In this document: piece by piece, positions 10,786 to 51,323 of the stretch
Layout: the number at the start of each line of letters is the position of its first letter
Numbering within the stretch: position 1 is the stretch's first letter
Translations under genes and position numbers: made by a program
Origin: Escherichia phage egaa
Length of the DNA: 51,643 bases
Sequence record: NC_049852.1
Direction: 5' to 3' (one strand)
The notes under the pieces: model-generated
Seen by the model: the letters and a program-made list of their open reading frames with translations, nothing else
Told to the model about the DNA's origin: nothing
The model's database searches: none

Positions 10786-11487
10786 TTAACTCCGCTTTCT
10801 TGCTCGACGCTCTGCCACCGAAGGGCAAATGTCGCTGATTTTAACGTATCGCGTTTTCTGCTGCTCACCTTCTTTAAGTTCTCGCATGATGAAAATAACG
10901 CTGCCTTTGTTGTTGCCCTGCACTGGTTTACCTGTAAGCGCGGAAGTAAACGCCAGGCGTCCGGTGCGGGAATATTCTGTTCCGTCCTCCTGGTAAACTT
11001 CTCCAGTGATCCAGATGATTTCCGCTGCGCGCTGTTGCGCTTCATAAAACCATCCTGTTGATGTGTCGCAAGGTAACAGTATGTCGATCTGGTTGTTGTG
11101 CTCCATTTGCTCAATCGCCTTCTTAACAAATGGAGTAATATTGCTGTACGGTGGATTAAGCCAGATATGCTTATTACTACCCCACCAACGCTTTAAGCAA
11201 TTTGTTTCCTTGCTGTAGAATTTTTCACATACAGCATTTTCTTTGCTCGCCGCCGCGTCGATGTCATAATCACCGTATTCGCTTTCCATCCATTCGACAA
11301 GCTCAGACGGAGTAGACCACAAATCGCGCACAATGTCCGGCGTATTGCTGCCGTTATAGCGGTTGCCAGTCACTTTGAAATATTGATTTGGTTTAACAGC
11401 CTGGTAATGACCACCAGTAGCAAGAGCATTGCCAATGAATGTTTCGCGTTCTATTTGTTCAAATGTCACTTCGGTTTCTTTGCTCAT
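10786..11487 (-). CDS. dam: DNA N6-adenine methyltransferase (phage Dam-like)
   Basis: NPPY catalytic motif (WLNPPYSNITPF) of amino-MTases; position next to nuclease/helicase as in T1-like phages. Confidence 0.8.
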   Translation of the reverse strand: MSKETEVTFEQIERETFIGNALATGGHYQAVKPNQYFKVTGNRYNGSNTPDIVRDLWSTPSELVEWMESEYGDYDIDAAASKENAVCEKFYSKETNCLKRWWGSNKHIWLNPPYSNITPFVKKAIEQMEHNNQIDILLPCDTSTGWFYEAQQRAAEIIWITGEVYQEDGTEYSRTGRLAFTSALTGKPVQGNNKGSVIFIMRELKEGEQQKTRYVKISDICPSVAERRARKRS

Positions 11488-11520
11488 TTCTTAATTACCT
11501 GTTGCTTGTTGAACTGGTGT

Positions 11521-11566
11521 TATTATGGCGCAATCCTTCGCGCCTGTTTTAACAAAAAGTGCTATT
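11521..11566 (-). promoter_or_regulatory. conserved 20-bp element (minus) + 23-nt spacer + ATAATA
   Basis: rc of 11547-11566 exact 20-mer incl. TAG stop of VRR-NUC gene; hairpin ggcgc-gaaggatt-gcgcc; ATG of dam 60 nt downstream. Confidence 0.6.
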
Positions 11567-11981
11567 TCATCATGTATTCTACAGCGATCATGAATTGCTT
11601 ATATCCGTATGTTACTGCGGCGAATCCGCCAAGCTCACGCACACGGCGTAAGAAGGCTTTTTGCTCCTTGCTGACTGGTGAAGCCTTACCCTTGCCAGAC
11701 TTATTGACGCGCTTCATCTCAATAGCTGCGAAAGGGTAGCGGCCTTTTAATCCAATCAGGATGATAAAATCACTTACTCCCTTAACGAGTCCGGCTTGCT
11801 GATCCATCATTGCGGTGGCGATCCCCTTGTCGCCCTCGTTTTTCGTATGCCATGCCAGCAATTCAGGATGAGCATAAGTTAACCATTGAAACCCCCCGAT
11901 CTGGTGCGATTCCTCTTTCAGCGTATCTGTCGGATCTCTTTCGTAAAACTCCAGATAATCGCCTTTATCAGTCATTGCCAT
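11562..11981 (-). CDS. VRR-NUC domain nuclease (PD-(D/E)XK fold)
   Basis: SDFIILIG ... AAIEMKR (D ... E-x-K) motif arrangement; adjacent to helicase. Confidence 0.6.
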   Translation of the reverse strand: MAMTDKGDYLEFYERDPTDTLKEESHQIGGFQWLTYAHPELLAWHTKNEGDKGIATAMMDQQAGLVKGVSDFIILIGLKGRYPFAAIEMKRVNKSGKGKASPVSKEQKAFLRRVRELGGFAAVTYGYKQFMIAVEYMMK

Positions 11982-14007
11982 AATTAAATTCCTTCTTGTA
12001 CAAATTATCTTCTCCCTTGCTAGTCTTGCGGTGAGTCACGCGCGATGGTGGCATGATGTGATTCACATATTGCATTATTTTTCGTGCATTACGATAGCTC
12101 GCCACCATGCCAGCAACGCGGCGATCTGGTATGTGCTTAAGAGCAACGCCTCGCCATTTTGCGCGGCAAATTTGGCTTTCAGATTCAGGGAAAAATATCT
12201 CTCTCGCCCTAAAAGTGTCTGCGCCATCGTAAAGCTCATAATTAAATATTATCCCTTTCTGGTTTTTCGTCATGTCAACAGAGAAAGATTGCACCTTGAA
12301 CCAGTCGTTTTTTGTGTAGTGCTTTCCGCTCAACTTCTCGTTAGGGTCAATCAATGACATGTCGCAATGTCTGCATACCCTGGCCGCAATATCATTTTTC
12401 GTTCCACAACCGCGCTGAATAATCTTTTTAGTGCGCGGGTCAATCTGATCATCACATGTCCTGAATTTAAAGAACCACTCGCATCTGTTGCCGTTTTCGT
12501 CTACGTGCATACAACGACGAGCATAATAGCTATTAAGAGTTCCGCAAACAGGACAAGGCTTCGGATCTTTACCGTTCCTGAATCGCTTCTGATGTTGCGC
12601 CTGTTCCAGTATCGGATCAAAATAAAGCTCACCTAACTCGTCCATCGTTCCTGAAAAATCCATAACCAGGTGATCATCTTTCTTGAAGCCTTGTTCCTTA
12701 TGCCATTTCTTAAGAAGTCGCATTCCGCGTCCTAAAAGCTGAATCAGCAAAGTTAGCGATCCAATCTTACGCAGAATAACAGACGTATCCCAAAACGGCA
12801 CGTTAACGCCAGTAGTTAGCGCCTGAACCTGGAAGATGTACTTTACCTTCCCTTCGTATGCTTCCCTCAACCACTCCTTGCGCTGGTTGTCGCCAGTCTT
12901 ACCAGTAATGATCCTGTAAGTCGTTCCAGGTGGCAATGCCGCCGCTGCCTCTTTGCAATGCCTTTCTCCTGCACATGTCACAAGTACGCCGTTACGGTTT
13001 TTACAGATCTCGTGAACTTTCGCCATGATGCGCTTTGTCATGGTCGCTTCTTCATGAATTTTTTGTTCCATCCTGCGAAGCGTTTTAGCGTCAAAGTCTG
13101 CGACGCCATCCTCGCTGGATGCCTCAAACTCTGAAAGGTCATACCCTAGATCGCCAACGTCGCCAAAATTTGTTGGCACAACAGAACCGAATTTGATCAG
13201 GTAGTTGGTGTCAATATTAGTAACCTGTTCACGCCAGAATCCTTTCTGTTTTTTGTCTTCTACCAGGATCGGGACTACTCCGCGAAACTCCGAACCAGTC
13301 ATACCAAAGATGCGCAGTTCATGACCATATGCTTTCCTGCAACGTCGCATCATTTCCATGATAATAACAGTGTATTGCGTGCGGCCTGTTCCCTCCATTG
13401 GTAAGCCATCCTCACCAATCATGAACTCTTCGCATTCGTTATCGCTCGTTATGTCATAATATGGATTTGGTACTTTTTCGCCTTTCTTCGTTGTCATTTG
13501 TAAAAATGATTCGTCTTTCTCTATTGCGTCGGCAAGGTCTTCCCAATCCACCTGGTGACATTCATCAATCCCGATAACGTGAGGAACATAGTCGCCAAGC
13601 GCTTTAAACAGTCCATTAACTACAGTTCCCTCAGAACCAACAACGATCGGAAAGTATGCGCTTTTTGTCTTCAGTCCTGCACAATAGATGGAGTTCGGCA
13701 CACCAAGATTTGTTATCTCTTCAGAATCCTGATCCACAATCTCAGCCTGGCGAGCAAGGACCATCATTTTCAAGCCCATTTTACGGCACTGGTGAGCAAC
13801 CATTGCAAACATCAATGTTTTGCCAGCCGATACGGACGCTTTAACAAAGAATGGGTGCTCATAATTTTTCATACGCTTTGCGATCTCAGCGTATGCAACG
13901 CACTGGTAAGGGTAAGGCACAATCTCGCCAACAGTGAATCGCTCCTGAATGGATTTAATTACCGCTTCACCAAGTGCTGATATTTGTTTTTCAATGTTTG
14001 GAATCAT
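11968..14007 (-). CDS. SF2 DEAD/DExH-box helicase with C-terminal zinc ribbon
   Basis: Walker A SVSAGKTLM, DECH box (GIDECHQV), C-terminal CPVCG...CRHCD; start moved to in-frame ATG 14007 (codon 23; aaAGGttttagaATG) because track start is TTG inside the promoter element. Confidence 0.8.
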   Translation of the reverse strand: MIPNIEKQISALGEAVIKSIQERFTVGEIVPYPYQCVAYAEIAKRMKNYEHPFFVKASVSAGKTLMFAMVAHQCRKMGLKMMVLARQAEIVDQDSEEITNLGVPNSIYCAGLKTKSAYFPIVVGSEGTVVNGLFKALGDYVPHVIGIDECHQVDWEDLADAIEKDESFLQMTTKKGEKVPNPYYDITSDNECEEFMIGEDGLPMEGTGRTQYTVIIMEMMRRCRKAYGHELRIFGMTGSEFRGVVPILVEDKKQKGFWREQVTNIDTNYLIKFGSVVPTNFGDVGDLGYDLSEFEASSEDGVADFDAKTLRRMEQKIHEEATMTKRIMAKVHEICKNRNGVLVTCAGERHCKEAAAALPPGTTYRIITGKTGDNQRKEWLREAYEGKVKYIFQVQALTTGVNVPFWDTSVILRKIGSLTLLIQLLGRGMRLLKKWHKEQGFKKDDHLVMDFSGTMDELGELYFDPILEQAQHQKRFRNGKDPKPCPVCGTLNSYYARRCMHVDENGNRCEWFFKFRTCDDQIDPRTKKIIQRGCGTKNDIAARVCRHCDMSLIDPNEKLSGKHYTKNDWFKVQSFSVDMTKNQKGIIFNYELYDGADTFRAREIFFPESESQICRAKWRGVALKHIPDRRVAGMVASYRNARKIMQYVNHIMPPSRVTHRKTSKGEDNLYKKEFNYGND

Positions 14008-14040
14008 TCTAAAACCTTTGAGTAATGCCATTTGGCGTGT

Positions 14041-14084
14041 ATAATACACAATCATTAAATCATCGTTTAACAAAAAATGCTATT
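14041..14084 (-). promoter_or_regulatory. element variant (minus) AATAGCATTTTTTGTTAAA + 21-nt spacer + TATTAT; overlaps a plus-strand TATAAT
   Basis: rc of 14066-14084; minus -10 TATTAT = rc of 14041-14046, plus TATAAT at 14039-14044: back-to-back divergent promoters for helicase and 14097 gene. Confidence 0.5.
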
Positions 14085-14096: not shown

Positions 14097-14570
14097 ATGA
14101 AAGAGCAACGAATCGCAGTATCAACAGGCAAGATTGACAAGCGCACAATTAATGGCAATAACGGAACAAGACGAGGCAAGGATAAGAAGAAGCGCAAGCG
14201 ACCGACAGGTTATTATGTTCTAAAAGATGAGGTGCGTGCCGGGCTAAAAGCGCGACTTGATATCCTTATTGAGTATTACGGAAGTGTATCAGCAATGGCA
14301 AAACGTCTTAACGTTAGCCAGCAAACTGTAAATCAGTGGCGCGTTCGCGGTATGATTTCAGCCGCTGGCGCTCAAAAGGTGCATAACGATTACAAAAAAT
14401 ATGGCTGCCAAGGCTATCGCGCGTCATTCTGCCGTCCAGATCTGCGATTTGATTCCAATGGTAAACCTCTCACAAAGAGATGTGATAAGCGTGAAATGTT
14501 GCGAGTGGTAAGAATGTCAGATTATGAACCTGGCGGATTCCTGTATAAACCTGAAAGCACTAATTGCTAA
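14097..14570 (+). CDS. HTH DNA-binding protein (XRE/Cro-like helix-turn-helix)
   Basis: SVSAMAKRLNVSQQTVNQWRVRGMIS helix-turn-helix; basic N-terminus; RBS GGAGaatgaataATG. Confidence 0.6.
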   Translation: MKEQRIAVSTGKIDKRTINGNNGTRRGKDKKKRKRPTGYYVLKDEVRAGLKARLDILIEYYGSVSAMAKRLNVSQQTVNQWRVRGMISAAGAQKVHNDYKKYGCQGYRASFCRPDLRFDSNGKPLTKRCDKREMLRVVRMSDYEPGGFLYKPESTNC

Positions 14571-14624
14571 AAACAATGCCTGGCATGATGTTATCATCTG
14601 TCAGGCTTTTTGTTTGAGGTGTAT

Positions 14625-21481: not shown

Positions 21482-21562
21482 ATTTATTTCCTCACGTTTA
21501 CTGTTAACTTGTGCGGTGAATTATAACACCGCATTTTTCATTTGTTTAGCTATTTGTGCTGT

Positions 21563-22624
21563 TTAAATAAGATATTGCTTAAACTGGCGGCGCACCCAAT
21601 CAGGAGTATCAAGACAAACCTCCGGCTCACCGTTTGAATACGAAGGCCAAACGTCATGTTGCTGGCACATGGCAAACTGGTTAATTACGCTCATGTACTG
21701 AATGCGCCCGATCTTCAATTGCTCGCTGTTCATGCGGAAAGCCAACGGCAAATAAGGCTCTTTCTTCTCTTGCGCTAACAGTCGCACAACTATAGGTCGC
21801 TTTTCTTCTGGATACGCTTTTCTGAATAAATCACATTGCAACGCCATTTTCAAATAATAGCCGTGATTGTAAGCCAGGCGCATAAACTCAGCCGGATTCG
21901 CGCTCATTGTAGTTTTGTAGTCTGTGATCACAATGGCCTCTGTATAAATAATATCGCGGCAAATCGGCTGGCCTTTTTCATCGTAACCATCAATCAGCGT
22001 TGCGGTGACGTTCTTTGTTACGTCAACGTGATCGCATCGCACTTTGACTTTTACGCCGTTAATTTCACCGAACAACGATAATTCACGCTGTGCCGTCTTG
22101 CTATTCATGCATGCGTTATGTTCCGGTATTGATTCCAGAACCTGGCGCATTGCCACGCACGAATCGTAATCTTTAGCCTCGATTAACTGAACCCCATCGG
22201 CCCTGGCCTGACTTTCTGCGATCATGTCGATTAACCACATGACGTTAAGGTCTTCTCCGCAGTCAACCATCATTTTTATAAGTTCGGGGTAAGTCTTTCC
22301 GGTTGTACCTTTCAGGCCAAATGATTTCAGCTTTGCAGCAAGCGCCGTTTGGCTGGTTATCAGATCCTTAAAGTCTTCTGGCGCTGGCGCACGGCGATAA
22401 GTTTTTTCGAAAAGCTCCTTGCTTTCAAAGTTGGTATGCGACTGCGTACCAAAAACTAGCGCCTTGCTCTTGTCGTCACGCGGCTTGAACTTCCACGCTG
22501 CCGGGCATGTGCTGTAAATCTCTGCCAGGCTTGAACCGCTAACATAATCAGCCGTCCACGCTTCTGGATCGTGATAAAGCTCGTTGCTCATTTCTTCGCT
22601 GGTGTACGCCATAAACTTATTCAT
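21563..22624 (-). CDS. RecE/YqaJ-like PD-(D/E)XK exonuclease
   Basis: YHDPEAWTADYVSGSSL N-terminal motif and E...VITDYKT (D-x-K) core; upstream of erf-like gene. Confidence 0.65.
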   Translation of the reverse strand: MNKFMAYTSEEMSNELYHDPEAWTADYVSGSSLAEIYSTCPAAWKFKPRDDKSKALVFGTQSHTNFESKELFEKTYRRAPAPEDFKDLITSQTALAAKLKSFGLKGTTGKTYPELIKMMVDCGEDLNVMWLIDMIAESQARADGVQLIEAKDYDSCVAMRQVLESIPEHNACMNSKTAQRELSLFGEINGVKVKVRCDHVDVTKNVTATLIDGYDEKGQPICRDIIYTEAIVITDYKTTMSANPAEFMRLAYNHGYYLKMALQCDLFRKAYPEEKRPIVVRLLAQEKKEPYLPLAFRMNSEQLKIGRIQYMSVINQFAMCQQHDVWPSYSNGEPEVCLDTPDWVRRQFKQYLI

Positions 22625-22779
22625 GATTTGCCCTCGTTTGTTGGTATGCCTGCATTTTAGCTATTTAATGCGTTTAGTCAACAGTTATTTTGTTTTTTCT
22701 GTTCTAACAACGTTCCAGACGAATCGGATAACAAAATTTACATGTAAGTGATTGATAAATATCTTTGTTGTCTTTTTGT

Positions 22780-23049: not shown

Positions 23050-23093
23050 GAATAGCACTTTTTGCTAAACGACCGCCGCAAGATCGTGTATAG
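23050..23093 (+). promoter_or_regulatory. element variant AATAGCACTTTTTGCTAAAC + 22-nt spacer + TATAGT
   Basis: 57 nt upstream of lipoprotein gene ATG. Confidence 0.55.
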
Positions 23094-23125
23094 TTGCAAC
23101 CAACAACAACTAAGGAGATACCAAG

Positions 23126-24374: not shown

Positions 24375-27300
24375 TTACCACGTACCAGTAAGCCTACCGA
24401 TCTGAACACGCAAAACGCCGTTTGCATCCCTAACGCTGATCGTTTCGTTTGTCATTTTCATGGCCCCCTCTCCAGGAGTAGAACCATAATTTTCAAACGT
24501 TCCGTTTTTATCCAGCCTCCATCCTGTTTGATTCCAAACGTAATTATTTGATTGGATGAAGTTACCGATCATGGCGTTTGTGATTGATCCGTTTTTCACT
24601 AACAGGCTGTTAATGAAAACTTGGTTATTTTCAACCACAAAAGGCAATGTATACGACCCTCCGGTCGAACTTGTCATGATAGCGAACCTGTTCGCATCAA
24701 ACAAAATCTGCGAAATAAGGCCGGATGAACCCTGCGAAAGCTGCATCACCATACCAGCACTGTACTTCTGACCGTTGTATGTCAATCCAAGTTTCATTGC
24801 GTACTGTGCGCCAACTCCATTAACGCCAGCCCATGAATCAAGTTTTTCCGTCAGCGCTGATTCAACATCTCCAAACTTCGCTGTTAATGCTGTGTCAGCA
24901 GAAACGCGCGCCTCTGTTTCGCTTGCAATCGCCTCCTCAACTCTCGTTAACTGCCCCTGAATATCATCTCCAATCTGTGATTTCAATTCCTCAATGGCTG
25001 TTGCTCTCGTTTCCGATTCTGTTGCAATTGCCTGATCAAGCCTCGTTACTTCGCTAGTTATTTCCTCGTCAAATTCAGCCTTGAGTTGCGTCATTGCGGT
25101 AACGCGCGCCTCAGTTTCATCTGCGATCAACTGTATTGATTGCCTGAATTCGGCTTTGCGTTTTCCGTTTTCCTTCCTCATAATCCTAACGTCTGCATCA
25201 TTCGCCAATGCGTTTTGAATGATGCTTTGCGCCTGATCCTTGATTTTGTTTGCGCTATCAATGGCATTCTCTTTCAGATCCTTCCCTGCTTCGGTATCAA
25301 AAATCTTATCAAGAATATTGCCTAAAACAGCCTCCACATCATCTGAAGCCATGCCTCTAACAAAATCAGTCCATCCGGAAACGTTGCCGATTCTGTCAAC
25401 ACTGCGGATTCTATACCATACAACATGACCAGCCGGAAGCGTACCGTGCCAGTATTCATATTGTGGATATGGGATCAGAGTTAACAGGCTTGAGTTTTCA
25501 GCCGTTCCATCCGGCGACTGATGAAGCTCAATGTATGCCGTGTCTCCGCTGCCTTCTGGCATCCCCCACTTAACACGAATGCCAAACACCTCATTGTCGG
25601 ATGCAGTTAAGTTAACTGGCGCGCCTGGCTCTCCTACCTTACCAGTCAGTGAAGCTGTTACAATTCTGGACCACGGCGACGTCGAACCTGAAGCAGAAAC
25701 AGATCTAACCCTTACCTGGTAGTTTCCTGAATAAATACCTTCAACCTCAATTTCTTTGTTTGCAGTCTGTGGTGTATTCAGCCAGTTGCCATCACCTTTT
25801 CGCCACTGCATTTCATACAGCGATGCGTAAGGTACTTTATCCCACGACACAACCATTGTTTCAACGCTTGCACCCTGGACAATTCGCGAGTAGGAGGATA
25901 TTTGCACATTTTCAGGCGCTGCCATTGTGTCAGGCTGGACAATTGAAGTTGGCCTGTCGTCAATGTTTACTCCATAATCAATCTCGTCGTATTTGTTCGG
26001 GTCATATTCAACAGCCGTGATGGAGTATGTAAATTCATCATCATCATCACCTTTGCCGATACTCGTTACAACGTATTGCTGCAATGCAATATCAGTGCGG
26101 TCGATTGCAAAAACCGTGTCAGGTTTAACCTCAAATCCAAACCCAATATTTAGCTCAATGGTTTTTCCGTCACCGCTTACTTTTGAGATTGTGCGCTTAA
26201 CTGGCTTCCCGTCTGGCTTGTTGATGATAATGAAATCACCTGGTCGCGCGTCAATCTTAAACGGAGCGAACACCTGCAAGCCTGAAACTTCCATCACGCG
26301 CCCTGATAGGTTTAACTTAAGGTTGCTGCTGTGAAAGTTGTCAGCAATAGCAATCACATCACCTATTGATGGGATCATGCCTTCCAGTCCAGTAGCAAAG
26401 TTTACCGTAGTGCTGCGCAAGTTAGTTTTTAGTATCCATCGACCGCGCCGATTAGCCTCACTCCTGCGTGTACATCCAATCGCTGTTATGCTTGTAGGAT
26501 TGTATCCAAATCGCAATGCTGCCTCGGTGTCGAATACGCCCTCTACGTCCTGTTGGTACATGTTTTGTTCGTCGTCGAACGTCACGTTGCACTGCGTGTA
26601 CATGCTCTTTTCGCTTGCTGTTGTGTACTGAAAATCACCATCAACAACGTTGTCATTGGTGAAGATGTACGACGGATCGCGCGGCTTATCAATGACGATT
26701 GACAAGCTCTCGCCATTCCAAAAGCTCATGCCTCGGAAGATTGAGCAAATATCACGAATAAGCTGATAAGCCTCAATCTGGCTTTGAATCACAACGTCGC
26801 ATAGATAACGCGGCTCTGTACCGCCTTTTCCATCCGGCACTTTCTGATCGCAGTATTGCGCCGCTTCGTAAAGACTCCATTTGTCAACCTGCACGCCAAG
26901 TTCTCGCTGATCTAATCCGTATCGCTGGTTTGTGATAATGTCATAAAGAACCCACGCCGGATTGTTCGACCACGCTTTCTTGAAAGTACCATCCCATGAA
27001 CCGTGATACTCTCGCATTACCGGATCGTAATTGCTCGGAACATTAATTAACTTCCATTTCTTCTTGATTGAAATGTTAGGGATCTGGTTAGGGAACAACT
27101 CACTGTCAAATTCAACGTATACAAGACCAGTCAGAGGATAACGGAATTTTGCATCAATAACCTCAGCGTAACTTTGTAGCTTAATCAGATCAGTAACGCG
27201 AGAGGATGCGCTGTCTGCCGTAACCCTTCTAACCCTAAGCAATACGCGATCATTAAATGCCGGAAGGTCAATCCTTCGGCTTCTGTCGTAACCGGAACGC

Positions 27301-27800
27301 GTTTTACCTTCGATGGTGTCTAGCAATACTTCTTTGTAAGAGTCTCCGTCAACAGCCATATCAACAGCATAAGTAACCTTAACGCCGACAAGATCGCCGT
27401 TATCCTCTTGCTTAATGCCTGTTGGCATTAGCATTTTGATTCTGATAGCCGATAATGTTTTGTTTGTTACAGAAATTACATAAGGATTTGATGTAGTAAT
27501 GTCACGCGCCAGCGTCACTTCGCTTGATGTGTCAGTAAATCCCTGGATGTAATCTTGCGTCTGCGTTCCAGGGCGAAATTCAGCTTTCACACCCTGGTAG
27601 TTAACAGTTCCGTCGTCTGCAATTACCGGAACATCATCAAGATACAGATCGCGAAGTGTAAAACTTGGATCGCACTCACCATCGGAAACGGCAAGAAGTA
27701 TTTTGATTTTGTTGATTGAGATCAGGTTATCTTCCATCTCTTTCGGAACATAAGGTTTTGATGATCCACCCTTACTGCCCGTTATCATATTTTCAGCCAT
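24375..27800 (-). CDS. central tail fiber / tail tip protein (lambda J-like host specificity protein)
   Basis: 1141 aa; position after I/K/L/M homologs; size and conserved gene order of lambda-like tail tip. Confidence 0.85.
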   Translation of the reverse strand: MAENMITGSKGGSSKPYVPKEMEDNLISINKIKILLAVSDGECDPSFTLRDLYLDDVPVIADDGTVNYQGVKAEFRPGTQTQDYIQGFTDTSSEVTLARDITTSNPYVISVTNKTLSAIRIKMLMPTGIKQEDNGDLVGVKVTYAVDMAVDGDSYKEVLLDTIEGKTRSGYDRSRRIDLPAFNDRVLLRVRRVTADSASSRVTDLIKLQSYAEVIDAKFRYPLTGLVYVEFDSELFPNQIPNISIKKKWKLINVPSNYDPVMREYHGSWDGTFKKAWSNNPAWVLYDIITNQRYGLDQRELGVQVDKWSLYEAAQYCDQKVPDGKGGTEPRYLCDVVIQSQIEAYQLIRDICSIFRGMSFWNGESLSIVIDKPRDPSYIFTNDNVVDGDFQYTTASEKSMYTQCNVTFDDEQNMYQQDVEGVFDTEAALRFGYNPTSITAIGCTRRSEANRRGRWILKTNLRSTTVNFATGLEGMIPSIGDVIAIADNFHSSNLKLNLSGRVMEVSGLQVFAPFKIDARPGDFIIINKPDGKPVKRTISKVSGDGKTIELNIGFGFEVKPDTVFAIDRTDIALQQYVVTSIGKGDDDDEFTYSITAVEYDPNKYDEIDYGVNIDDRPTSIVQPDTMAAPENVQISSYSRIVQGASVETMVVSWDKVPYASLYEMQWRKGDGNWLNTPQTANKEIEVEGIYSGNYQVRVRSVSASGSTSPWSRIVTASLTGKVGEPGAPVNLTASDNEVFGIRVKWGMPEGSGDTAYIELHQSPDGTAENSSLLTLIPYPQYEYWHGTLPAGHVVWYRIRSVDRIGNVSGWTDFVRGMASDDVEAVLGNILDKIFDTEAGKDLKENAIDSANKIKDQAQSIIQNALANDADVRIMRKENGKRKAEFRQSIQLIADETEARVTAMTQLKAEFDEEITSEVTRLDQAIATESETRATAIEELKSQIGDDIQGQLTRVEEAIASETEARVSADTALTAKFGDVESALTEKLDSWAGVNGVGAQYAMKLGLTYNGQKYSAGMVMQLSQGSSGLISQILFDANRFAIMTSSTGGSYTLPFVVENNQVFINSLLVKNGSITNAMIGNFIQSNNYVWNQTGWRLDKNGTFENYGSTPGEGAMKMTNETISVRDANGVLRVQIGRLTGTW

Positions 27801-33705: not shown

Positions 33706-33718
33706 TTCTTTCTCCTTG

Positions 33719-33737
33719 ATAGCACTTTTTGTTAAAA
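33719..33737 (+). promoter_or_regulatory. copy of conserved element (ATAGCACTTTTTGTTAAAA) in inverted orientation relative to surrounding late genes
   Basis: plus-strand copy inside minus-strand late operon, 14-32 nt upstream of the G gene start on the opposite strand. Confidence 0.4.
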
Positions 33738-37477: not shown

Positions 37478-37496
37478 GATAGCATTTTTTGTTAAA
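37478..37496 (+). promoter_or_regulatory. copy of conserved element (ATAGCATTTTTTGTTAAA) in inverted orientation, in leader region of major capsid gene
   Basis: plus-strand copy about 50 nt upstream (opposite strand) of capsid ATG. Confidence 0.4.
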
Positions 37497-37515
37497 CGTG
37501 CAACATAATTTTGTG

Positions 37516-45863: not shown

Positions 45864-45894
45864 TTTTATTTCCTCTGTTTCGCTTCAATGAGGA

Positions 45895-45940
45895 CACTTT
45901 AACAAATGCCCTCGCGGAAGTTTTAACAAAAAGTGCTATT
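45895..45940 (-). promoter_or_regulatory. conserved 20-bp element (minus orientation); -10 not clearly assignable
   Basis: rc of 45921-45940 = aatagcactttttgttaaaa overlapping the stop of 45939-46226. Confidence 0.5.
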
Positions 45941-46226
45941 AGCTCATGTAATAGATTTCATCGCGCACAAAATCGTCAAAATCAGATTGCGTTAATGGTC
46001 GATCCTCTAATGCTGCCTGCTCAATCATTTCAACCAGGGCGCAATCCATATCAAGGTAATGCGCATCAAGATCATACCATGAAGCCATTTCACGCGCCCA
46101 GGAGCGGCAATTCTTGAATCCGTAACGGCGGATACAGTTTGCTGTGTGAAATGAGTCATTCCAGCCACGCTCAAGCGCTGCCTTTTCGAATGCGTTAATC
46201 AACATTTTACGATTGCTTTTAGCCAT
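45939..46226 (-). CDS. hypothetical protein (95 aa)
   Basis: In-frame ATG (codon 9 of track ORF) with RBS aAAGGAGGaaacaaaATG. Confidence 0.6.
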   Translation of the reverse strand: MAKSNRKMLINAFEKAALERGWNDSFHTANCIRRYGFKNCRSWAREMASWYDLDAHYLDMDCALVEMIEQAALEDRPLTQSDFDDFVRDEIYYMS

Positions 46227-46269
46227 TTTGTTTCCTCCTTTTAGCGCCACCTGAGCGGCGCGGTTAACA

Positions 46270-46449
46270 TTACTTCTTTTTTCCGGTCAGCATGTAACGC
46301 TTTCCGTTTTCGAATCCATCACAATAGCCAGCATACCCGCCAGCCATGAAGATAATCAACCCGCCGATTGACTCAACAATGCCGCTATAATTATATGCCA
46401 GGTAGCAACCAGCGATAAGGGCAATAAAAATGATAATTACTCTTTTCAT
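46270..46449 (-). CDS. small membrane protein (59 aa)
   Basis: In-frame ATG (codon 8) overlapping upstream stop (ATGA); hydrophobic VIIIFIALIAGCYLAY and GGLIIFMAGGYAGY segments. Confidence 0.55.
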   Translation of the reverse strand: MKRVIIIFIALIAGCYLAYNYSGIVESIGGLIIFMAGGYAGYCDGFENGKRYMLTGKKK

Positions 46450-46709
46450 TCGTGATCCCACACATCGCATTTTTTGACAACCAGCAAACGCAGCTTGTAA
46501 GGTCTGAACTTGTGCAACTTTTTAGCGTACTCACGCGCTTCGCTGTAGCTATTGAACTCCATAGCCCAAAAGCCGAAAGCATCATCCGTCAGATATTCCC
46601 AATCCCCACTAATAACGCGGCGGCGTTGCAGGTAATAAATCTTACATTCTGTGCAAGCAACGATCCGGTATTCAGGTTTAAAGATTCGTTTTAGTGCATT
46701 AAAAACCAT
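46446..46709 (-). CDS. hypothetical protein (87 aa)
   Basis: ORF track; RBS GTGAGGGccgcaatATG. Confidence 0.55.
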   Translation of the reverse strand: MVFNALKRIFKPEYRIVACTECKIYYLQRRRVISGDWEYLTDDAFGFWAMEFNSYSEAREYAKKLHKFRPYKLRLLVVKKCDVWDHE

Positions 46710-46822
46710 ATTGCGGCCCTCACTGAATAAACAACTAAGAGAATCAAGAATAACACAATCATTATTTCATGAAAATCAAATGGCGGCTTTGGATTGGTTG
46801 CGTTGTTGTTATTTCCCAGCAT
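46691..46822 (-). CDS. possible small membrane protein (43 aa)
   Basis: In-frame ATG (codon 32) of track ORF 46691-46915, chosen to avoid overlap with 46809-47210; hydrophobic C-terminus IMIVLFLILLVVYSV; weak RBS. Confidence 0.3.
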   Translation of the reverse strand: MLGNNNNATNPKPPFDFHEIMIVLFLILLVVYSVRAAIWFLMH

Positions 46823-47210
46823 TTCGCGCAATCCCTTTGTACATTCTGTAAAAATTACTGCCAGGCTTTTTGAACTTGATCGCATTTCGAGCAAGTCGGC
46901 GCATACGTCGCGCATCGTATCGCGCTCGCTGAAATGGTGTTTTCATTGTCTTAACATGACAGCCGCGATGATCGCTGATTCGCTCAAGCTCAATCAAAAC
47001 TCCTTGAGTTGCCACTACGCAATAATAATCAAATCCAAGACGGCGAGTTATTATATAGCCATTCTTGATGCGTGGGCGGCGAAAGTCTTTGCTGTACCCG
47101 CGATAAATACTATCCACCGTAACAACCTGACCCTTGCTAACTCCGCAATATTTATCTGCCCAGGTTACGCGAAATTTTGTTCCAACGCGAATGTCGTTAA
47201 GTTCTAACAT
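46809..47210 (-). CDS. hypothetical basic protein (133 aa), possibly nucleic-acid binding
   Basis: ORF track; RBS GAGAGGActtgaaacATG; Arg/Lys-rich C-terminus RRMRRLARNAIKFKK. Confidence 0.6.
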   Translation of the reverse strand: MLELNDIRVGTKFRVTWADKYCGVSKGQVVTVDSIYRGYSKDFRRPRIKNGYIITRRLGFDYYCVVATQGVLIELERISDHRGCHVKTMKTPFQRARYDARRMRRLARNAIKFKKPGSNFYRMYKGIARNAGK

Positions 47211-47241
47211 GTTTCAAGTCCTCTCGTTGATTGGTGTTTGC

Positions 47242-47286
47242 ATTATAGCGAGGCATTGCGCCCCGCTTTTAGCAATTCGTGCTATT
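47242..47286 (-). promoter_or_regulatory. variant element AATAGCACGAATTGCTAAAA + hairpin + TATAAT
   Basis: rc of 47267-47286 incl. TAG stop of kinase gene; TATAAT = rc of 47242-47247; ATG of 46809-47210 57 nt downstream. Confidence 0.55.
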
Positions 47287-47872
47287 CAATCTTTGTGTGT
47301 TTCCACTGCACCGATTTGATGATCTCGTCAACAGTCTTTTCTGGCTCGCCATCAATCATTGTGAAGTCGTAATGCTTGACTCGTTGATGGTATCCGCTCA
47401 GGTCAATATAGTTTCGCGAATCTCCATCAAACGTGAATCCCTCGCGATGCAGTCGGCAAATGTGAACTTCATGGCCTGCCTTAACGAGCGGCTTGATTTC
47501 TTCAGGGAATCCGCCATCACTAATTACAACAGCCAAATCTCTGTACATCTCGTGTACTTGCTCAACCATGCGATTCCCAAAATATTGATCGCCAAAAGCT
47601 GGCTTCATAACTTCTTCGCTAATCCAGATCATGAATTGTCGCGGAGACTTGCCTTGCAAGATTGCTTGAGGCTTTTCTTTCTGCTCGCGGTCGTTATACA
47701 GATCAATGAACTCGTCATATCTGTAAACGCCAAGCATGGAGAATGCAATATCAAACATCGGCTGTTTAAACGACGCTTCAACCGCTGCGTAACGATGGCC
47801 CGTTAAGTATGCGGCAAGCGTATCTTTGCCAACTCCTGGCGGTCCGTTAAGGATGATAATGTCTCGTTTCAT
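47282..47872 (-). CDS. deoxynucleoside monophosphate kinase-like P-loop kinase
   Basis: Walker A ILNGPPGVGKDT; overall resemblance (recalled) to T4 gp1 dNMP kinase; in-frame ATG at codon 6 with GGAG upstream. Confidence 0.6.
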   Translation of the reverse strand: MKRDIIILNGPPGVGKDTLAAYLTGHRYAAVEASFKQPMFDIAFSMLGVYRYDEFIDLYNDREQKEKPQAILQGKSPRQFMIWISEEVMKPAFGDQYFGNRMVEQVHEMYRDLAVVISDGGFPEEIKPLVKAGHEVHICRLHREGFTFDGDSRNYIDLSGYHQRVKHYDFTMIDGEPEKTVDEIIKSVQWKHTKIE

Positions 47873-47873
47873 A

Positions 47874-48011
47874 TTAGTTGTCTCCATATCGGCTTGAATG
47901 TTTACCTGGGCGCTGTCGCTTTTTGCGATAGCGTTGATTCATCTCTTGGCGCTCGTGGTAGCTGTATCGCTTCTTTTTGGATACGATTTTTTCGAAGTTT
48001 CGCATCTTCAT
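47874..48011 (-). CDS. small highly basic protein (45 aa), not in ORF track
   Basis: Translated directly: MKMRNFEKIVSKKKRYSYHERQEMNQRYRKKRQRPGKHSSRYGDN; stop TAA abuts kinase ATG; weak RBS. Confidence 0.3.
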   Translation of the reverse strand: MKMRNFEKIVSKKKRYSYHERQEMNQRYRKKRQRPGKHSSRYGDN

Positions 48012-48066
48012 GATCTCATGTTGTTATCTCAACATAGCGCACTGCATGAATGCGCTATAGTAAGAG

Positions 48067-48252
48067 TCACCACTTAAAGCCGCTTTCATCCCGTACAATC
48101 TGGTAAAGCGCCACCCAAAACCACACAAACCAGAACATCAGAACAAGAGGCTGATCTTTATCAGTGCAATCACACTCTTTAACCAATGCGCGGAAGATGA
48201 ATAAACCTGAAATATAAAAGAAAACCACTAAAAATACAAGTAACCAAATCAT
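48067..48252 (-). CDS. small membrane protein (61 aa)
   Basis: Two hydrophobic helices (IWLLVFLVVFFYISGLFIF; LVLMFWFVWFWVALY); RBS AAGGAGtcaacaaATG; ATGA overlap. Confidence 0.6.
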   Translation of the reverse strand: MIWLLVFLVVFFYISGLFIFRALVKECDCTDKDQPLVLMFWFVWFWVALYQIVRDESGFKW

Positions 48253-48512
48253 TTGTTGACTCCTTCAATTACCAGCGTGTAAAGCAGAACTGGATTTTGC
48301 ATGTCGCTTCGGCGCGGCTCTCGTGGCGAATCTGGCCATGCGCATTTCCCGTTTGCCACAATATAACCCACCAGATCACTAAGTTTTGATATACCGTCTC
48401 GACTAATCACGTTGTATGCAACGTCTTCGCCGTCAATGGAATGGATAGCAAAGAAACTTGGCGCGCCGTCAATCTTGCCTACCGCTTTGAAAAACTCAAC
48501 TTTATTAACCAT
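48249..48512 (-). CDS. hypothetical protein (87 aa)
   Basis: ORF track; RBS aacGAGGAttaaatcATG, 57 nt downstream of element variant. Confidence 0.6.
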   Translation of the reverse strand: MVNKVEFFKAVGKIDGAPSFFAIHSIDGEDVAYNVISRDGISKLSDLVGYIVANGKCAWPDSPREPRRSDMQNPVLLYTLVIEGVNK

Positions 48513-48543
48513 GATTTAATCCTCGTTTGTTGTCGATGGGCTT

Positions 48544-48588
48544 ACTATACCGCAAGCCCGATAATCTGTTTTTGCAAAAAGTGCTACT
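48544..48588 (-). promoter_or_regulatory. variant element AGTAGCACTTTTTGCAAAAA + 22-nt spacer + TATAGT
   Basis: rc of 48569-48588 incl. TAG stop of small ORF; leader CATCGACAACAAACGAGGA conserved. Confidence 0.55.
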
Positions 48589-48745
48589 TACGAACGCAGA
48601 ATACTTCAACTTCTTTATCGTTATCTGACATATGCAAAATTACTTGCTCTCTCGCGGCCTGACATCTTGATTCACCGTGGAACTCGCGAGACTCAATTGC
48701 GGCTGAATTGTAGCTTGTGATAATCACAAATAGAATCCAGGTCAT
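48584..48745 (-). CDS. small protein (53 aa) with hydrophobic N-terminus, not in ORF track
   Basis: ATG 48745 overlapping upstream stop (ATGA) with RBS GGAGGAattgaaATG; MTWILFVIITSYNSAAIESREFHGESRCQAAREQVILHMSDNDKEVEVFCVRK. Confidence 0.5.
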   Translation of the reverse strand: MTWILFVIITSYNSAAIESREFHGESRCQAAREQVILHMSDNDKEVEVFCVRK

Positions 48746-49281
48746 TTCAATTCCTCCACGCCATGCGATTGGATATGATTATGTGGCTTGTCGTATTCCG
48801 TGACCTGATAGGTTGTGATTCCCAGGCTGCGGAAGTGATTAACCACGTTCGGCGAATCATCAAAAGCGCACACGATGTTTTCTAGGCCGATAGCGCGCAA
48901 GACTTCTTCTTTGATGATCGTGTCTTTTCGGTTGTCTTCCTTGCGTCGCATGATTAACGCGTCGTACTTGATGCCGTTTTCGTTAAGCCATTTGCAGGTG
49001 TCCTCAATCACTTCATCGCTACGTCCGGTCAGGATAACGATGGCAAATCCTGACATCCACAATCCGTTAACCACTGCAACCGTGCTCTTAATCGGCGAAT
49101 CTCCAACAGCCGCTTTGTTGAACTCAGACCAGCTTTCTGTAAGGTGTAAATCTTCTGTCGGCAGCAGATGCAAGCGATGAGTCCCATCGGATAACGTGCC
49201 GTCAAGGTCAACGACAACAATCGGCTTGCTCGTGGAAAAATGGTATTTGCTTCCCCAAAGTTCAAATTCGTATTTTTTCAT
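48742..49281 (-). CDS. HAD-family phosphatase resembling the 3'-phosphatase domain of T4 polynucleotide kinase
   Basis: VVVDLDGTL (DxDGT), ILTGRSDEV, MRRKEDNRKDTIIKEEVL, AFDDSPNVVNHF align to recalled T4 Pnk phosphatase motifs; in-frame ATG at codon 6 (track start TTG). Confidence 0.7.
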   Translation of the reverse strand: MKKYEFELWGSKYHFSTSKPIVVVDLDGTLSDGTHRLHLLPTEDLHLTESWSEFNKAAVGDSPIKSTVAVVNGLWMSGFAIVILTGRSDEVIEDTCKWLNENGIKYDALIMRRKEDNRKDTIIKEEVLRAIGLENIVCAFDDSPNVVNHFRSLGITTYQVTEYDKPHNHIQSHGVEELK

Positions 49282-49292
49282 TATCAAACCTA

Positions 49293-49514
49293 TCAATTAA
49301 AATGGATTTGCTTGTATTCGATTTCATCTGCCAGATCATTTAACTTATCCGCCAGCTTGCGCACCTGGTCAGCGGTGAGTATCGACCTAAAATCCGGTCT
49401 GCGACCACCTTCAAACGTGCCATCAATAAACACTCTATCGCCGAACTTATATACTTCAAGTGCATCGCCATGATTATCAATAAACTTGTGCTTAACGCGC
49501 TTATTTGTTTCCAT
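49293..49514 (-). CDS. hypothetical protein (73 aa)
   Basis: ORF track; RBS aaGAGGTGAaagATG. Confidence 0.6.
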   Translation of the reverse strand: METNKRVKHKFIDNHGDALEVYKFGDRVFIDGTFEGGRRPDFRSILTADQVRKLADKLNDLADEIEYKQIHFN

Positions 49515-49731
49515 CTTTCACCTCTTCAAATTCAGCAATTACCATAGCGTGCGCCATAACCTTAGTGCCTTCGCCACCGTTCAGGAACATGCGATGCCCT
49601 TTACTATTGCTCACGTAAAAAGATCCGGTTGATGATTTCAACTTTTGCGCCATATAGATTTCGCCAGGCTTGAACATGCCAGAGCAACCATAGTTAACGG
49701 AAATGCATTTCATCTTCTTGTTAATGTACAT
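49501..49731 (-). CDS. hypothetical Cys-containing protein (76 aa)
   Basis: In-frame ATG (codon 22 of track ORF 49501-49794) with RBS cgAAGGAGataaaacgATG; track start lies inside promoter element. Confidence 0.55.
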   Translation of the reverse strand: MYINKKMKCISVNYGCSGMFKPGEIYMAQKLKSSTGSFYVSNSKGHRMFLNGGEGTKVMAHAMVIAEFEEVKDGNK

Positions 49732-49760
49732 CGTTTTATCTCCTTCGTTGAAAGTGAGGC

Positions 49761-49804
49761 CATTATACTTGGCCCCACATTTGAGTTTTAACAATTCGTG
49801 CTAT
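49761..49804 (-). promoter_or_regulatory. variant element AATAGCACGAATTGTTAAAA + spacer + TATAAT
   Basis: rc of 49785-49804; TATAAT = rc of 49761-49766. Confidence 0.55.
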
Positions 49805-49872
49805 TTAATAATGCATTAGGATGTATAAAAACAGTCCTATCCAGCCTGCAATGTGCATCAACGTGTAAATGC

Positions 49873-50760
49873 TCATGCTCTAACCTTCCACTTAACCATC
49901 GTTCCGCGCTTGATGCTAATCTCACCAGCAACTGTACGGTTTTTTGCGCTACCGTAATGAAGCAGAAGAATAACAACATCATCATGAATCTCGATCGTCT
50001 TTGGTTTTGCCGTTACTTCAAACCACATACCATCATCAAGCTGAACTCCTTTTAGCGTGGCGGCAACTGGCATGTCTTCAATTGCGCCCTGCGTTACGAT
50101 TTCTTGATTTGCAAAGGCGCTCTTATCAATACGCCAGCCTCCAGGCGCTTTCATTTCAACGGCTGCCTTGTGGATCTCCTCGCCAATGATTTTTTGAATT
50201 GACGTCTTTCCGCCGCCGAATGGTGTTTCTCCAAACAAGTGTTTTGTAATGTCTTCCACGTAGTACACCTTATCTTTTTCATTGTGCGGATTGAATTTGT
50301 TGTGACCATTAACAAAGAAATCAACTTTCAACTCTGATTTCTGACCATCGCTATAAACGCCATTGTCGCGCGATGTGAACCTGATTGTTGAACCGCCACA
50401 ATGAAAAACAATCGGATACTTGATATTGTCCACACTTAAGCACCACAATTTTTTGTAGTCGCAGGTTTTCATATCTACCGTATGAATCTCTGCGCGTTCA
50501 GGCGAGCGCGCTGGTAACACCTGGCCTTTATATGGCTTGTAGTGAAAACATGTGTATCCTGGCATTGCGTAACCGTAGTCTCTGAGTGAGTTGTAGTGTT
50601 TATTGTGCGCTTCAATGAAGTGTTCAATCTCCATTGTTGAAGCGTTTGGACTTCCGTATTCGTTAAACTTAGTGCATGTCTTCTCGTCGGTAAACATGAA
50701 ATGACCAACGCCGCGAGATTCGAAGGTGATCGGGAATTTAATGTTAGCAAGTTTTAACAT
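49873..50760 (-). CDS. hypothetical early protein (295 aa)
   Basis: ORF track; RBS AAGGAGaaagtaccATG; contains FGGGKTS (not a canonical Walker A); no confident family assignment. Confidence 0.7.
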   Translation of the reverse strand: MLKLANIKFPITFESRGVGHFMFTDEKTCTKFNEYGSPNASTMEIEHFIEAHNKHYNSLRDYGYAMPGYTCFHYKPYKGQVLPARSPERAEIHTVDMKTCDYKKLWCLSVDNIKYPIVFHCGGSTIRFTSRDNGVYSDGQKSELKVDFFVNGHNKFNPHNEKDKVYYVEDITKHLFGETPFGGGKTSIQKIIGEEIHKAAVEMKAPGGWRIDKSAFANQEIVTQGAIEDMPVAATLKGVQLDDGMWFEVTAKPKTIEIHDDVVILLLHYGSAKNRTVAGEISIKRGTMVKWKVRA

Positions 50761-50814
50761 GGTACTTTCTCCTTATTGGTTTAACTGGGCGACGCCGTGC
50801 CGCCCTATGTGATT

Positions 50815-50860
50815 TATTATGCCTGGTTATCGTTTTTGAGTTTTAACAAAAAGTGCTATT
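50815..50860 (-). promoter_or_regulatory. conserved 20-bp element (minus) + 23-nt spacer + ATAATA
   Basis: rc of 50841-50860 overlapping TAA stop of 50860-51045; hairpin gggcggc-acggcgt-cgccc in leader. Confidence 0.55.
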
Positions 50861-51045
50861 TAGAATTTTACCTCTTCCACAAGCTCGACCATTTTATAAC
50901 CAAGACGATAAGAGTCACCGAACAACAAGATCCCCATAAATTCATCGTGGCTTATTGACTCTTTGCCAACCGTTCTAAGCTCGCCGTTGTGAATCACAGT
51001 ATCGCCGATCTTGATTTCTGATTTATGGACTAATTTCGTTTTCAT
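50860..51045 (-). CDS. hypothetical protein (61 aa)
   Basis: ORF track; RBS gcAGGTGAataaATG. Confidence 0.55.
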   Translation of the reverse strand: MKTKLVHKSEIKIGDTVIHNGELRTVGKESISHDEFMGILLFGDSYRLGYKMVELVEEVKF

Positions 51046-51060
51046 TTATTCACCTGCTAA

Positions 51061-51246
51061 TTAAAAGAAAGCCACATAGTTTGCAATGCCTTTTGCGTCG
51101 TCGTTTGGCATTGCTTTTACAGCCATGTCATAACCTGCCTCTACCTTCTGCTTTGCTGCTTCTTCGTTGTATCCCCAGATAACCAGGATTTTAACTACGT
51201 TTTCTTTGTTCAGGACTTTAAGGTCTTTGGTGATGCGACGTGCCAT
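51061..51246 (-). CDS. hypothetical protein (61 aa)
   Basis: ORF track; RBS ttGAGGAaacaaaaATG; 58 nt downstream of element. Confidence 0.6.
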   Translation of the reverse strand: MARRITKDLKVLNKENVVKILVIWGYNEEAAKQKVEAGYDMAVKAMPNDDAKGIANYVAFF

Positions 51247-51277
51247 TTTTGTTTCCTCAATCTCGTTTCGATGAGGC

Positions 51278-51323
51278 TATTATGCCAGGTTTTGCGCCTG
51301 GCGTTTTAACAAAAAGTGCTATT
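51278..51323 (-). promoter_or_regulatory. conserved 20-bp element (minus) + hairpin spacer + ATAATA
   Basis: rc of 51304-51323 exact 20-mer; hairpin gccagg-cgcaaaa-cctggc; leader CATCGAAACGAGA...GAGGA. Confidence 0.6.

Follow-up and report, generated by a model that had tools for sequence, protein, structure and literature searches.

A 20-base-pair (bp) box recurs in front of minus-strand genes between positions 45,895 and 51,323 of the DNA of Escherichia phage egaa (sequence record NC_049852.1; 51,643 nucleotides (nt), the whole of which we call the window), and raises the question of what this element does and what reads it. The original prediction was that six such copies punctuate a leftward early operon, mirroring a cluster in the rightward direction. 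Our analysis indicates that the box is most likely the specific upstream half of about 20 promoters, joined with a hairpin in a mobile terminator-promoter cassette. The fuller explanation that we favour, a composite terminator-promoter cassette whose box would be centred at -42 and probably be read by a Cro-like phage regulator, is put forward with roughly even confidence.

All six copies are present, but one had been placed a base off (it occupies 49786-49805, not 49785-49804) and another, at 48569-48588, is degenerate. They follow the pattern AATAGCAC-N3-TTG-N-TAAAA on the minus strand, all are intergenic and on the coding strand, and in five of the six the upstream gene ends at the box, its stop codon abutting or overlapping the first box bases. 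The expected distance of 53-81 nt to a minus-strand start codon was borne out, with gaps of 54-80 nt between box end and start codon (57, 80, 54, 56, 56 and 57 nt in order from 51323 to 45940); measured from the box start, the distance is 74-77 nt in five copies and 100 nt in the sixth. Within the window, AATAGCAC-N7-TAAAA has 12 exact matches and 25 with at most two mismatches, whereas dinucleotide shuffles gave 2.96 ± 1.71 matches at the latter tolerance and reached 25 in 0 of 100 cases. The leftward copies are indeed the same element as the rightward cluster.

A box-anchored alignment of all copies from four genomes (the window and phages T1, TLS and Rtp; 85 boxes) revealed how the element is built into its surroundings. 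An xAxxxT hexamer lies exactly 19 nt past the box in 65 of the 85 (76%), and the neighbouring offsets from -3 to +3 gave 0-13. These 65 units have TATaaT as their hexamer consensus, with G at -14 in 54 (83%) and T at -15 in 30. The predicted +1, seven bases past the hexamer (6 nt between), is A in 56, with C before it in 41 and tcGAAAcga after it, and the leader A(+1)TCGAAACGA is conserved across units. The spacer between box and hexamer is 19 nt, rarely 18 or 20. Since this distance to the -10 is fixed, the element is a promoter part and not a free-standing repeat. Klebsiella phage 1513 (Webervirus) and phage Vc1 (Jhansiroadvirus) have an identical build; the architecture is therefore a family property.

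There is no canonical -35 at 17 ± 1 bp, and the sole TTG-containing hexamer of the box lies 22 bp from the -10, which is too distant for it to act as a -35. A scan of 43000-51643 for canonical -35/-10 pairs found 11, against 16.0 ± 3.9 expected, and thus not above chance. Box, -10 and leader together would form an extended -10 sigma-70 promoter, a reading in which we have high confidence. Counted from the predicted +1, the box would span -51 to -32, with its dyad centre (box position 10) at -42. The putative transcripts open with a conserved ATCGAAACGA or ATCGACAACGA (1052, 10495, 51272 and others). A second recurring leader motif, CCAATCAGGAG, contains the ribosome-binding site (for example CCCATCAGGAG at 1066), and in phage Vc1 a related word, AACCAATCAG, is the commonest 10-mer, with nine copies.

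The six leftward units, all on the minus strand, illustrate this layout. Unit 1 (51247..51323) has a T-type box at 51323-51304 (AATAGCACTTTTTGTTAAAA), a hairpin at 51302-51284 (GCCAGG/CCTGGC; -10.8 kcal/mol, z -2.0), a -10 CATAAT at 51284-51279, a predicted +1 at A 51272 (ATCGAAACGA) and an ATG at 51246. Unit 2 (50761..50860) carries the same T-type sequence, AATAGCACTTTTTGTTAAAA, at 50860-50841, followed by CATAAT at 50821-50816, a predicted +1 near 50809 and an 80-nt gap from the box to the ATG at 50760; its promoter is without a hairpin, and by eye its leader holds a GC-rich inverted repeat, GGGCGGCACGGCGTCGCCC. In unit 3 (49732..49805) the box at 49805-49786 (AATAGCACGAATTGTTAAAA) is a GAATTGT variant, the spacer is 18 nt, and the -10 TATAAT at 49767-49762 is straddled by a hairpin at 49778-49754 (-15.5 kcal/mol, z -4.7), with a predicted +1 at 49755 and the ATG at 49731.

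The degenerate box of unit 4 (48513..48588) lies at 48588-48569 (AGTAGCACTTTTTGCAAAAA; AGTAGCAC..TTGCAAAAA) and has three mismatches to the consensus; a hairpin at 48559-48538 (-14.9 kcal/mol, z -4.2) straddles the -10 TATAGT at 48549-48544, and the predicted +1 at 48537 (ATCGACAAC) precedes an ATG at 48512. Unit 5 (47211..47286) has a GAATTGC variant at 47286-47267 (AATAGCACGAATTGCTAAAA) that forms a perfect TAGCA-N5-TGCTA dyad, a spacer hairpin at 47266-47248 (-13.1 kcal/mol, z -2.6), a -10 TATAAT at 47247-47242, a predicted +1 at 47235 and an ATG at 47210. In unit 6 (45864..45940), a T-type consensus box at 45940-45921 is followed by an extended -10, TGt TAAAGT, with the hexamer at 45901-45896, a hairpin straddling it at 45913-45890 (-16.8 kcal/mol, z -4.3), a predicted +1 at 45889 and a GTG start at 45863. 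Its box, spacer and -10 are identical in the TLS copy at 6477.

Which bases of the box carry its specificity can be read from the copies of the same four genomes. Positions 2-8 (ATAGCAC), 12-14 (TTG) and 16-19 (TAAA) are nearly invariant, and variability is confined to positions 9-11 and 15, which co-vary. In five genomes (the four and phage 1513), central TTT pairs with T at position 15 (32 vs 11) and central GAA, TAA or AAA with C (29 vs 5; Fisher p = 2e-7). The two GAATTG variants (47267, 49786) and the AAATTG copy (3036-3055) bear out the original prediction, and the GAATTG subfamily is real and found family-wide, with TTT, GAA, AAA and TAA classes occurring in the window, T1, TLS, Rtp and 1513 alike. 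Every central variant retains an A/T tract at -43 to -39. The proposal that the outer halves are the recognition determinants stands in so far as they are conserved, but C8, T12, T13 and G14 are conserved as strongly as ATAGCA and TAAAA; with TTG and C8 invariant and variation limited to positions 9-11 and 15, the outer halves are not the sole determinants. Forms with C15 hold the perfect dyad TAGCA-N5-TGCTA; for the box in general the dyad is imperfect, TAGCA-N5-TG(C/T)TA. This geometry is that of an operator for a helix-turn-helix dimer.

The second component is a hairpin, which most units carry. The longest uninterrupted stem that can form between box and +1 has a mean of 7.44 bp, compared with 5.13 ± 0.12 in shuffled sequences (z about 19), and folding energies of -10.8 to -16.8 kcal/mol (z of -2.0 to -4.7) were obtained for five of the six local units. 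Hairpins are placed either within the spacer, ending at the -10, or across the -10, in which case TGnTAT lies in the loop. Several carry a terminator annotation in the T1 and TLS records. A stem followed by a T run is seen in few, such as 7301-7317 and the hairpin at the primase -10 (TTTTT); most precede the -10 or ATCGAAACGA. The hairpin probably ends the upstream transcript, or stabilises or protects it.

The third property of the unit is its mobility. Homology blocks between the region and five Hanrivervirus relatives have 10 of 20 upstream-side ends within 2 nt of the 5' edge of a box, at three sites (48588, 49805 and 51323), and other blocks start at the start-codon end of units, at 45869 and 48510. 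Phage damhaus has a conserved island of 80 nt (48510-48589) whose flanks are not homologous; it spans precisely one unit, box to ATG. Few of the genes downstream of the local boxes are common to different genera. Breakpoints at box edges, together with the damhaus island, indicate that the units also act as joints for early-gene swapping. Just upstream of box 48588, a 53-amino-acid (53-aa) open reading frame (ORF) at 48584-48745 (minus strand) has DNA without a counterpart in three of the five relatives, and the remaining two match it weakly (79% identity); it resembles a cassette that entered by insertion or replacement at the box joint.

What reads the box? The prime candidate is the helix-turn-helix protein encoded at 14097..14570 on the plus strand, a member of the T1 gp23/TLS gp57/Rtp52 family. 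This 157-aa protein is the sole recognised DNA-binding protein among 46 ORFs common to five genomes, and 841 phage records contain it. Below threshold, it matches YdaS and P22 Cro in Pfam, and its PHROG match is to 'transcriptional regulator'. Its AlphaFold model (mean pLDDT 85) contains a four-helix Cro-type domain, and the best matches of the model among solved structures are Xfaso-1 Cro, operator-bound N15 Cro and C.BclI, a restriction-modification controller protein. Conservation within the protein is highest in a disordered basic N-terminal arm (residues 1-38).

The regulator locus itself contains a box. An inverted copy lies 9-12 nt upstream of the regulator ATG in all five genomes, and the transcript from the regulator promoter crosses it (14065-14084). 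At 14040-14046, the regulator -10 TATAAT on the plus strand and the -10 TATTAT of the helicase box promoter on the minus strand share five of six base pairs, and the same overlap of opposite-strand -10s is found in T1, TLS, Rtp and 1513. Because the two promoters overlap face to face, occupancy of the box would shift polymerase from the regulator to the helicase gene. That a specific protein and not polymerase alone reads the box seems to us reasonably probable; that this protein is the Cro-like regulator is a tentative assignment, somewhat short of an even chance.

Taken together, we propose that the box is the upstream recognition half of a Drexlerviridae-specific promoter class used by the host sigma-70 RNA polymerase. 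Each unit would comprise, in order, the box (A1-A20), a 19-nt spacer, (T)G-n-TATAAT, 6 nt, A(+1)TCGAAACGA, a Shine-Dalgarno sequence and the start codon. A sequence-specific protein on the box, with the conserved phage Cro-like helix-turn-helix protein (14097-14570) as prime candidate, would recruit or stabilise polymerase. On the inverted box, the same protein could activate the helicase promoter and silence that of the regulator itself. The hairpin in the spacer or around the -10 would end or stabilise the upstream transcript, and the whole unit would serve as a conserved joint for early-cassette exchange among related phages.

Several observations weigh against this proposal. The box is invariant in six genera, while the recognition helix of the regulator varies (QQTVNQW, NQTVQGW, LKTVWGW, PQAVEEW, IQVVQQW and CRLTNAY); a co-variation test of regulator against box gave no signal, and phage Vc1 combines a divergent helix with the same box. 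Any divergent gene beside a box promoter has a box upstream by default. A rightward arm dependent on a regulator 13 kb away would be delayed-early, not immediate-early. The +1, and hence the centre at -42, is predicted from sequence alone. A single consensus hairpin register was sought and not found; without a fixed register, the hairpins are unlikely to be part of polymerase recognition. The two tests of whether pairing acts at the RNA or the DNA level disagree: with G.U pairs allowed, sense stems exceed antisense stems (7.44 vs 6.41 bp, p = 2e-4), and a second wobble test counted 111 G.T vs 108 A.C, without strand bias.

The strongest competitor is that host polymerase alone reads the box, with TTG(C/T)TA and TAAAA as a displaced -35-like element and the central T5/AATT tract near -41 serving the alpha C-terminal domain as a proximal UP subsite; the units would then be plain strong early promoters. 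A box that stays the same across hosts while the regulator varies fits a reader as conserved as polymerase, the A/T tract kept by every central variant fits an alpha contact, a G at -14, as 83% of units have, removes the need for a -35, and UP elements are among the possibilities listed by the authors who described the repeat in phage TLS (PMC11447400). However, TTGYTA at 22 bp from the -10 is about 5 bp too far for sigma region 4, and the invariant G5, C6 and C8 are foreign to UP elements. Moreover, about 30 bits are conserved, which exceeds known alpha or sigma contacts, and the presence of canonical promoters at particular genes suggests two promoter classes with different requirements. We regard this explanation as unlikely.

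Next comes the possibility that the box is a repression operator over the -35 region that silences the early promoters as infection proceeds, most likely with the Cro-like regulator as its reader, or a stoperator that blocks elongation, like those of mycobacteriophage L5. Structurally, the regulator is nearest to Cro proteins, antitoxins and C proteins, which are mostly repressors, and three genes, for the regulator, the tail chaperone and the capsid protein, have an inverted box in their leader, from which a bound protein could do nothing but impede transcription; stoperators, too, were mentioned for TLS (PMC11447400). Yet an operator needs no spacing to the -10 fixed to the base pair, as it is in 76% of copies, and the promoters, taken without the box, would have no upstream element. 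The phage is virulent, with no integrase, immunity repressor or repressor module seen in four fully annotated reference genomes. The same protein may also activate one promoter and repress another, as lambda cI does. We therefore consider repression as the main function to be distinctly improbable.

A host transcription factor such as Lrp would explain an unvarying box in another way, since Lrp is nearly identical across Enterobacteriaceae. Of the 15 positions of the E. coli consensus yAGhAwATTwTdCTr (PMC5554404), 13 are matched by the box core TAGCAC-TTT-TTGCTA, and by our own count the T variants match 12-13 of 15, A variants 12 and G variants 11. The invariant C8, however, mismatches the consensus, the GAA variants mismatch its entire centre, and the degenerate Lrp motif falls far short of the box in specificity. 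It also counts against Lrp that T1 grows well in rich medium, in which little of this protein is present. The E. coli chromosome has no conserved box-like site: 5426 genomes yielded 26 scattered places, and native chromosomal sites are probably chance matches only. We give Lrp, or any other host factor, little credence.

The occurrence of the box outside any phage, on IncF-type plasmids, speaks for a host factor. A tandem pair occurs at 362 plasmid places among the 5426 E. coli genomes, for example on p2EC1-3 (NZ_CP047574.1, about 47312-47428), in the form AATAGCACTTTTTGTATTCTCG-TATAGCACTAATTGCTAAAA-cgggg-TATATT-tgcgt-CATCGG, about 60 nt upstream of a 162-aa ORF. Here the -10 follows 5 nt past the box and not 19 nt, which places the pair outside the phage register. 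BLAST of the plasmid locus against phage records gave a match limited to the box, about 24 bp. The product of the 162-aa ORF has, by eye, a hydrophobic N-terminus, and has no phage homologue and no Pfam or PADLOC match; its gene neighbours are an OLD/ABC-type ATPase (PADLOC HEC-04, PtuA-like) or ccdAB, together with a DUF3800 gene. A bolder version of our own proposal would tie these plasmids in: a Cro-like protein with an invariant basic N-terminal arm would take over sigma-70 polymerase at about 20 promoters lacking a -35, flip the regulator/helicase locus and possibly two late-gene leaders, and so time early versus late expression, with the IncF plasmid boxes, ahead of a putative membrane-protein gene, sensing or titrating the phage factor during infection. 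We offer it as a long shot.

Least credible of all is that the unit acts mainly at the RNA level, in processing, stabilisation or termination as at T7 RNase III sites, with an incidental TATAAT-like hexamer: the strong enrichment of hairpins, the longer sense stems with G.U pairs and the terminator annotations in T1 and TLS point that way, but the hexamer keeps a fixed distance from the box while the hairpin shifts, the invariant A2 and T6 of the hexamer, the G at -14 and the C-A start are promoter features, the conserved inverted copies argue for recognition of double-stranded DNA, the second wobble test lacked strand bias, and Rfam covariance models gave no match at gathering score in the whole window. 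Other sites were compared with the box by eye, at the level of their consensus sequences, and dropped, since half-site spacing or invariant bases differ: sigma-54, sigma-32 and sigma-28 promoters, and IHF, CRP, FNR, ArcA, OmpR and GAD-box sites.

The element has a published counterpart. A 21-nt direct repeat, aaATAGCACnnnTTGnTAAAA, is known from intergenic sites of phage TLS through its 2024 re-annotation, which notes similar repeats in T1, Rtp and Rogue1; its subgroups A, T and G correspond to central AAA, TTT and GAA, and it lies about 76 nt upstream of the start codon, along the direction of transcription (PMC11447400). The authors propose stoperators, enhancer-binding sites or UP elements, and count the function of the repeat among four open questions for T1-like phages (PMC11447400). 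Sequence, orientation, start-codon distance and subgroups are the same as in the window; the box is the TLS direct repeat in a sister genus, a feature already known. In the literature, we found no later paper settling the function of the repeat, the box sequence itself yielded nothing relevant, and a search for transcriptome data was equally unproductive. The TLS paper treats the repeat as free-standing; the 19-nt link to the -10, the +1 leader, the overlap with the regulator promoter, the nested hairpins as a class and the coincidence of box edges with recombination breakpoints are new here.

Among other known systems, activator dyad sites that overlap a weak or absent -35 are found for lambda cI at OR2 (-42), for class II CRP (-41.5) and in C-protein boxes. 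The likeness lies in a dyad that would be centred at about -42 and in overlapping promoters switched by occupancy, and the candidate regulator resembles both C proteins and Cro proteins in fold; the difference lies in about 20 sites per genome in place of one control region, in a virulent phage, with a predicted reader. T4 middle promoters (MotA/AsiA) likewise replace the -35 with a phage box at a fixed distance from the -10, at many promoters of one temporal class. The MotA box, however, is centred at -30, about 12 bp from the -10, whereas the centre here would be at -42, and no MotA or AsiA homologue was seen among the proteins tested. UP elements lie at -59 to -38; they share with the box an activity-raising A/T-rich tract upstream of the core promoter, but the box would span -51 to -32, is a dyad, and has G5, C6 and G14 invariant or nearly so and C8 nearly so.

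The stoperators of mycobacteriophage L5 resemble the box in being many copies of a short site, in one orientation to transcription and mostly intergenic. They serve the immunity repressor of a temperate phage and have no promoter register, whereas the box has a 19-nt register in a virulent phage. Closest in organisation are the PeSLs, composite terminator/promoter cassettes of T4-like phages (PMC2839356, PMC4122927). Like the units described here, they combine a stem-loop with an early promoter between small variable early genes and border indels and replacements among close relatives. Unlike them, PeSLs are unrelated in sequence and belong to another phage family, their stem-loop precedes the promoter and is not nested in the spacer or -10, and the normal -35 is here replaced by a specific 20-bp box.

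How the leftward units relate to the rest of the early region depends on the form of the genome. The 45800-51643 segment is 92-96% identical to the Hanrivervirus phages (Drexlerviridae) vojen, pSf-1 and JakobBernoulli, and the gene order of the window is that of T1, TLS and Rtp. An ORF of 155 aa runs from 406 to 1 and then from 51643 to 51582, uninterrupted across the window junction; the window is therefore a whole genome cut open at an arbitrary point, and the leftward operon connects through the junction to the divergent region near 407. By these comparisons, the window is a complete, circularly permuted T1-like phage genome (Drexlerviridae, Hanrivervirus). Twenty records, MG0656xx, labelled 'Campylobacter phage' (host Campylobacter jejuni), are T1-like coliphage sequences, and two of them, A15a and A113, have a regulator 100% identical to that of the window; their names or host entries are probably mistaken.

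The few good canonical promoters stand at the sites of the only three sigma-70 promoters listed for TLS: one for the first leftward gene (438..467, minus strand; TTGACA-18-GATAAT; TLS P01), a sigma-70-like one upstream of recE (22654..22681, minus strand; TTGACT-16-TAAAAT; TLS P51) and one for the regulator gene (14018..14045, plus strand; TTGAGT-16-TATAAT; TLS P57). Canonical-type promoters are readable at the equivalents of the first-gene and regulator-gene sites in T1, TLS, Rtp and 1513. The leftward arm thus runs from its canonical promoter through the 155-aa DUF7174 gene and an 87-aa gene to the first box (51323), and the rightward arm opens directly with the box at 1001. Since a host-type promoter and two genes precede the first leftward box, the arms are asymmetric, and the symmetric divergence of two early operons envisaged earlier does not hold. 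The DUF7174 protein was dropped as a box reader: phage 1513 has the box without this protein, and T1 has a sub-threshold match only.

The divergent region that separates the arms (window 430-1000) is A/T-rich, with 37.5% G+C vs 44.1%, and holds 13 GTTAT/ATAAC pentamers (22.8 per kb vs 3.3 per kb in the whole genome). A CA-rich tract lies near 590-690, and the T1 record, including its terminal repeat, begins in the equivalent region. Window 430-1000 may contain sites for packaging or replication.

The rightward arm (1001..7323, plus strand) contains seven units of the same build, with boxes at 1001, 1878, 2384, 3036 (AAATTGC), 4434, 5110 and 7279, each with a -10 18-19 nt downstream. Directly behind box 2384, the gene at 2409-2654 (plus strand) encodes an 81-aa product that matches PF25180, 'phage antiviral trigger protein Gp54' (E = 1e-36). 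The idea that the element punctuates the early operon was correct in that the boxes are co-oriented with the genes and head successive leftward gene groups, but they are not confined to early genes of unknown function: boxes also head replication and recombination genes, and inverted copies lie beside two late genes. The replication-gene units (10502..14084, minus strand) have boxes at 10546-10527, 11566-11547 and, for the helicase, 14084-14065. The primase unit (14553..14597, plus strand) has the box GAAAGCACTAATTGCTAAAA and a -10 TATCAT in the loop of a hairpin, GCCTGGCA/TGTCAGGC, followed by TTTTT; we read this hairpin as a likely terminator of the regulator gene, and the T1 record has a terminator annotated at the matching place. 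A unit downstream of recE (21520..21563, minus strand) consists of the box AACAGCACAAATAGCTAAAC, an 18-nt spacer and TATAAT, and one heading a 75-aa ORF at 23126 (23051..23094, plus strand) of the box AATAGCACTTTTTGCTAAAC and a -10 TATAGT.

Of the inverted boxes at late genes, one (33718..33737, plus strand) abuts the ribosome-binding site of the minus-strand tail-chaperone gene, and the other (37478..37497, plus strand) precedes the major capsid gene, also on the minus strand, at a distance of 47 nt from its ATG (37431). Equivalent sites are occupied in relatives, at 18851-18832 in T1 for the tail chaperone and at 15068 in T1 and 15024 in TLS for the capsid. A plus-strand TAGCAT hexamer lies 19 nt past the first of these boxes and, at 33757-33769, abuts a minus-strand TACAAT; two promoters may face each other there. 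For Rogue1, the record lists a promoter labelled 'extended -10' between the major tail and tape-measure chaperone genes. On the minus strand at 27804-27823, a box-like AATAGCACAAAAGGTGAAAA ends 3 nt ahead of the start of a large tail gene (24375..27800); its AAGG could act as a ribosome-binding site, it has no -10 partner, and it is conserved in T1 (25020) and TLS (24907, DR8 in the TLS listing).

T1 is one of the seven classical coliphages. In a scan of viral contigs, multi-copy box loci among the matches listed were mainly on contigs of about 46-53 kb, a T1-like size. For more than 800 sequenced relatives, the present analysis provides an annotation rule, in which a box, 19 nt and a -10 mark the start of a transcription unit. 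The genes behind the boxes in both arms are variable early cassettes, among which host-takeover and anti-defence genes are to be expected; the use of regulatory motifs to find anti-defence genes is described for archaeal viruses (PMC11065993). Finally, the coincidence of box edges with homology breakpoints suggests how T1-like phages exchange early genes.

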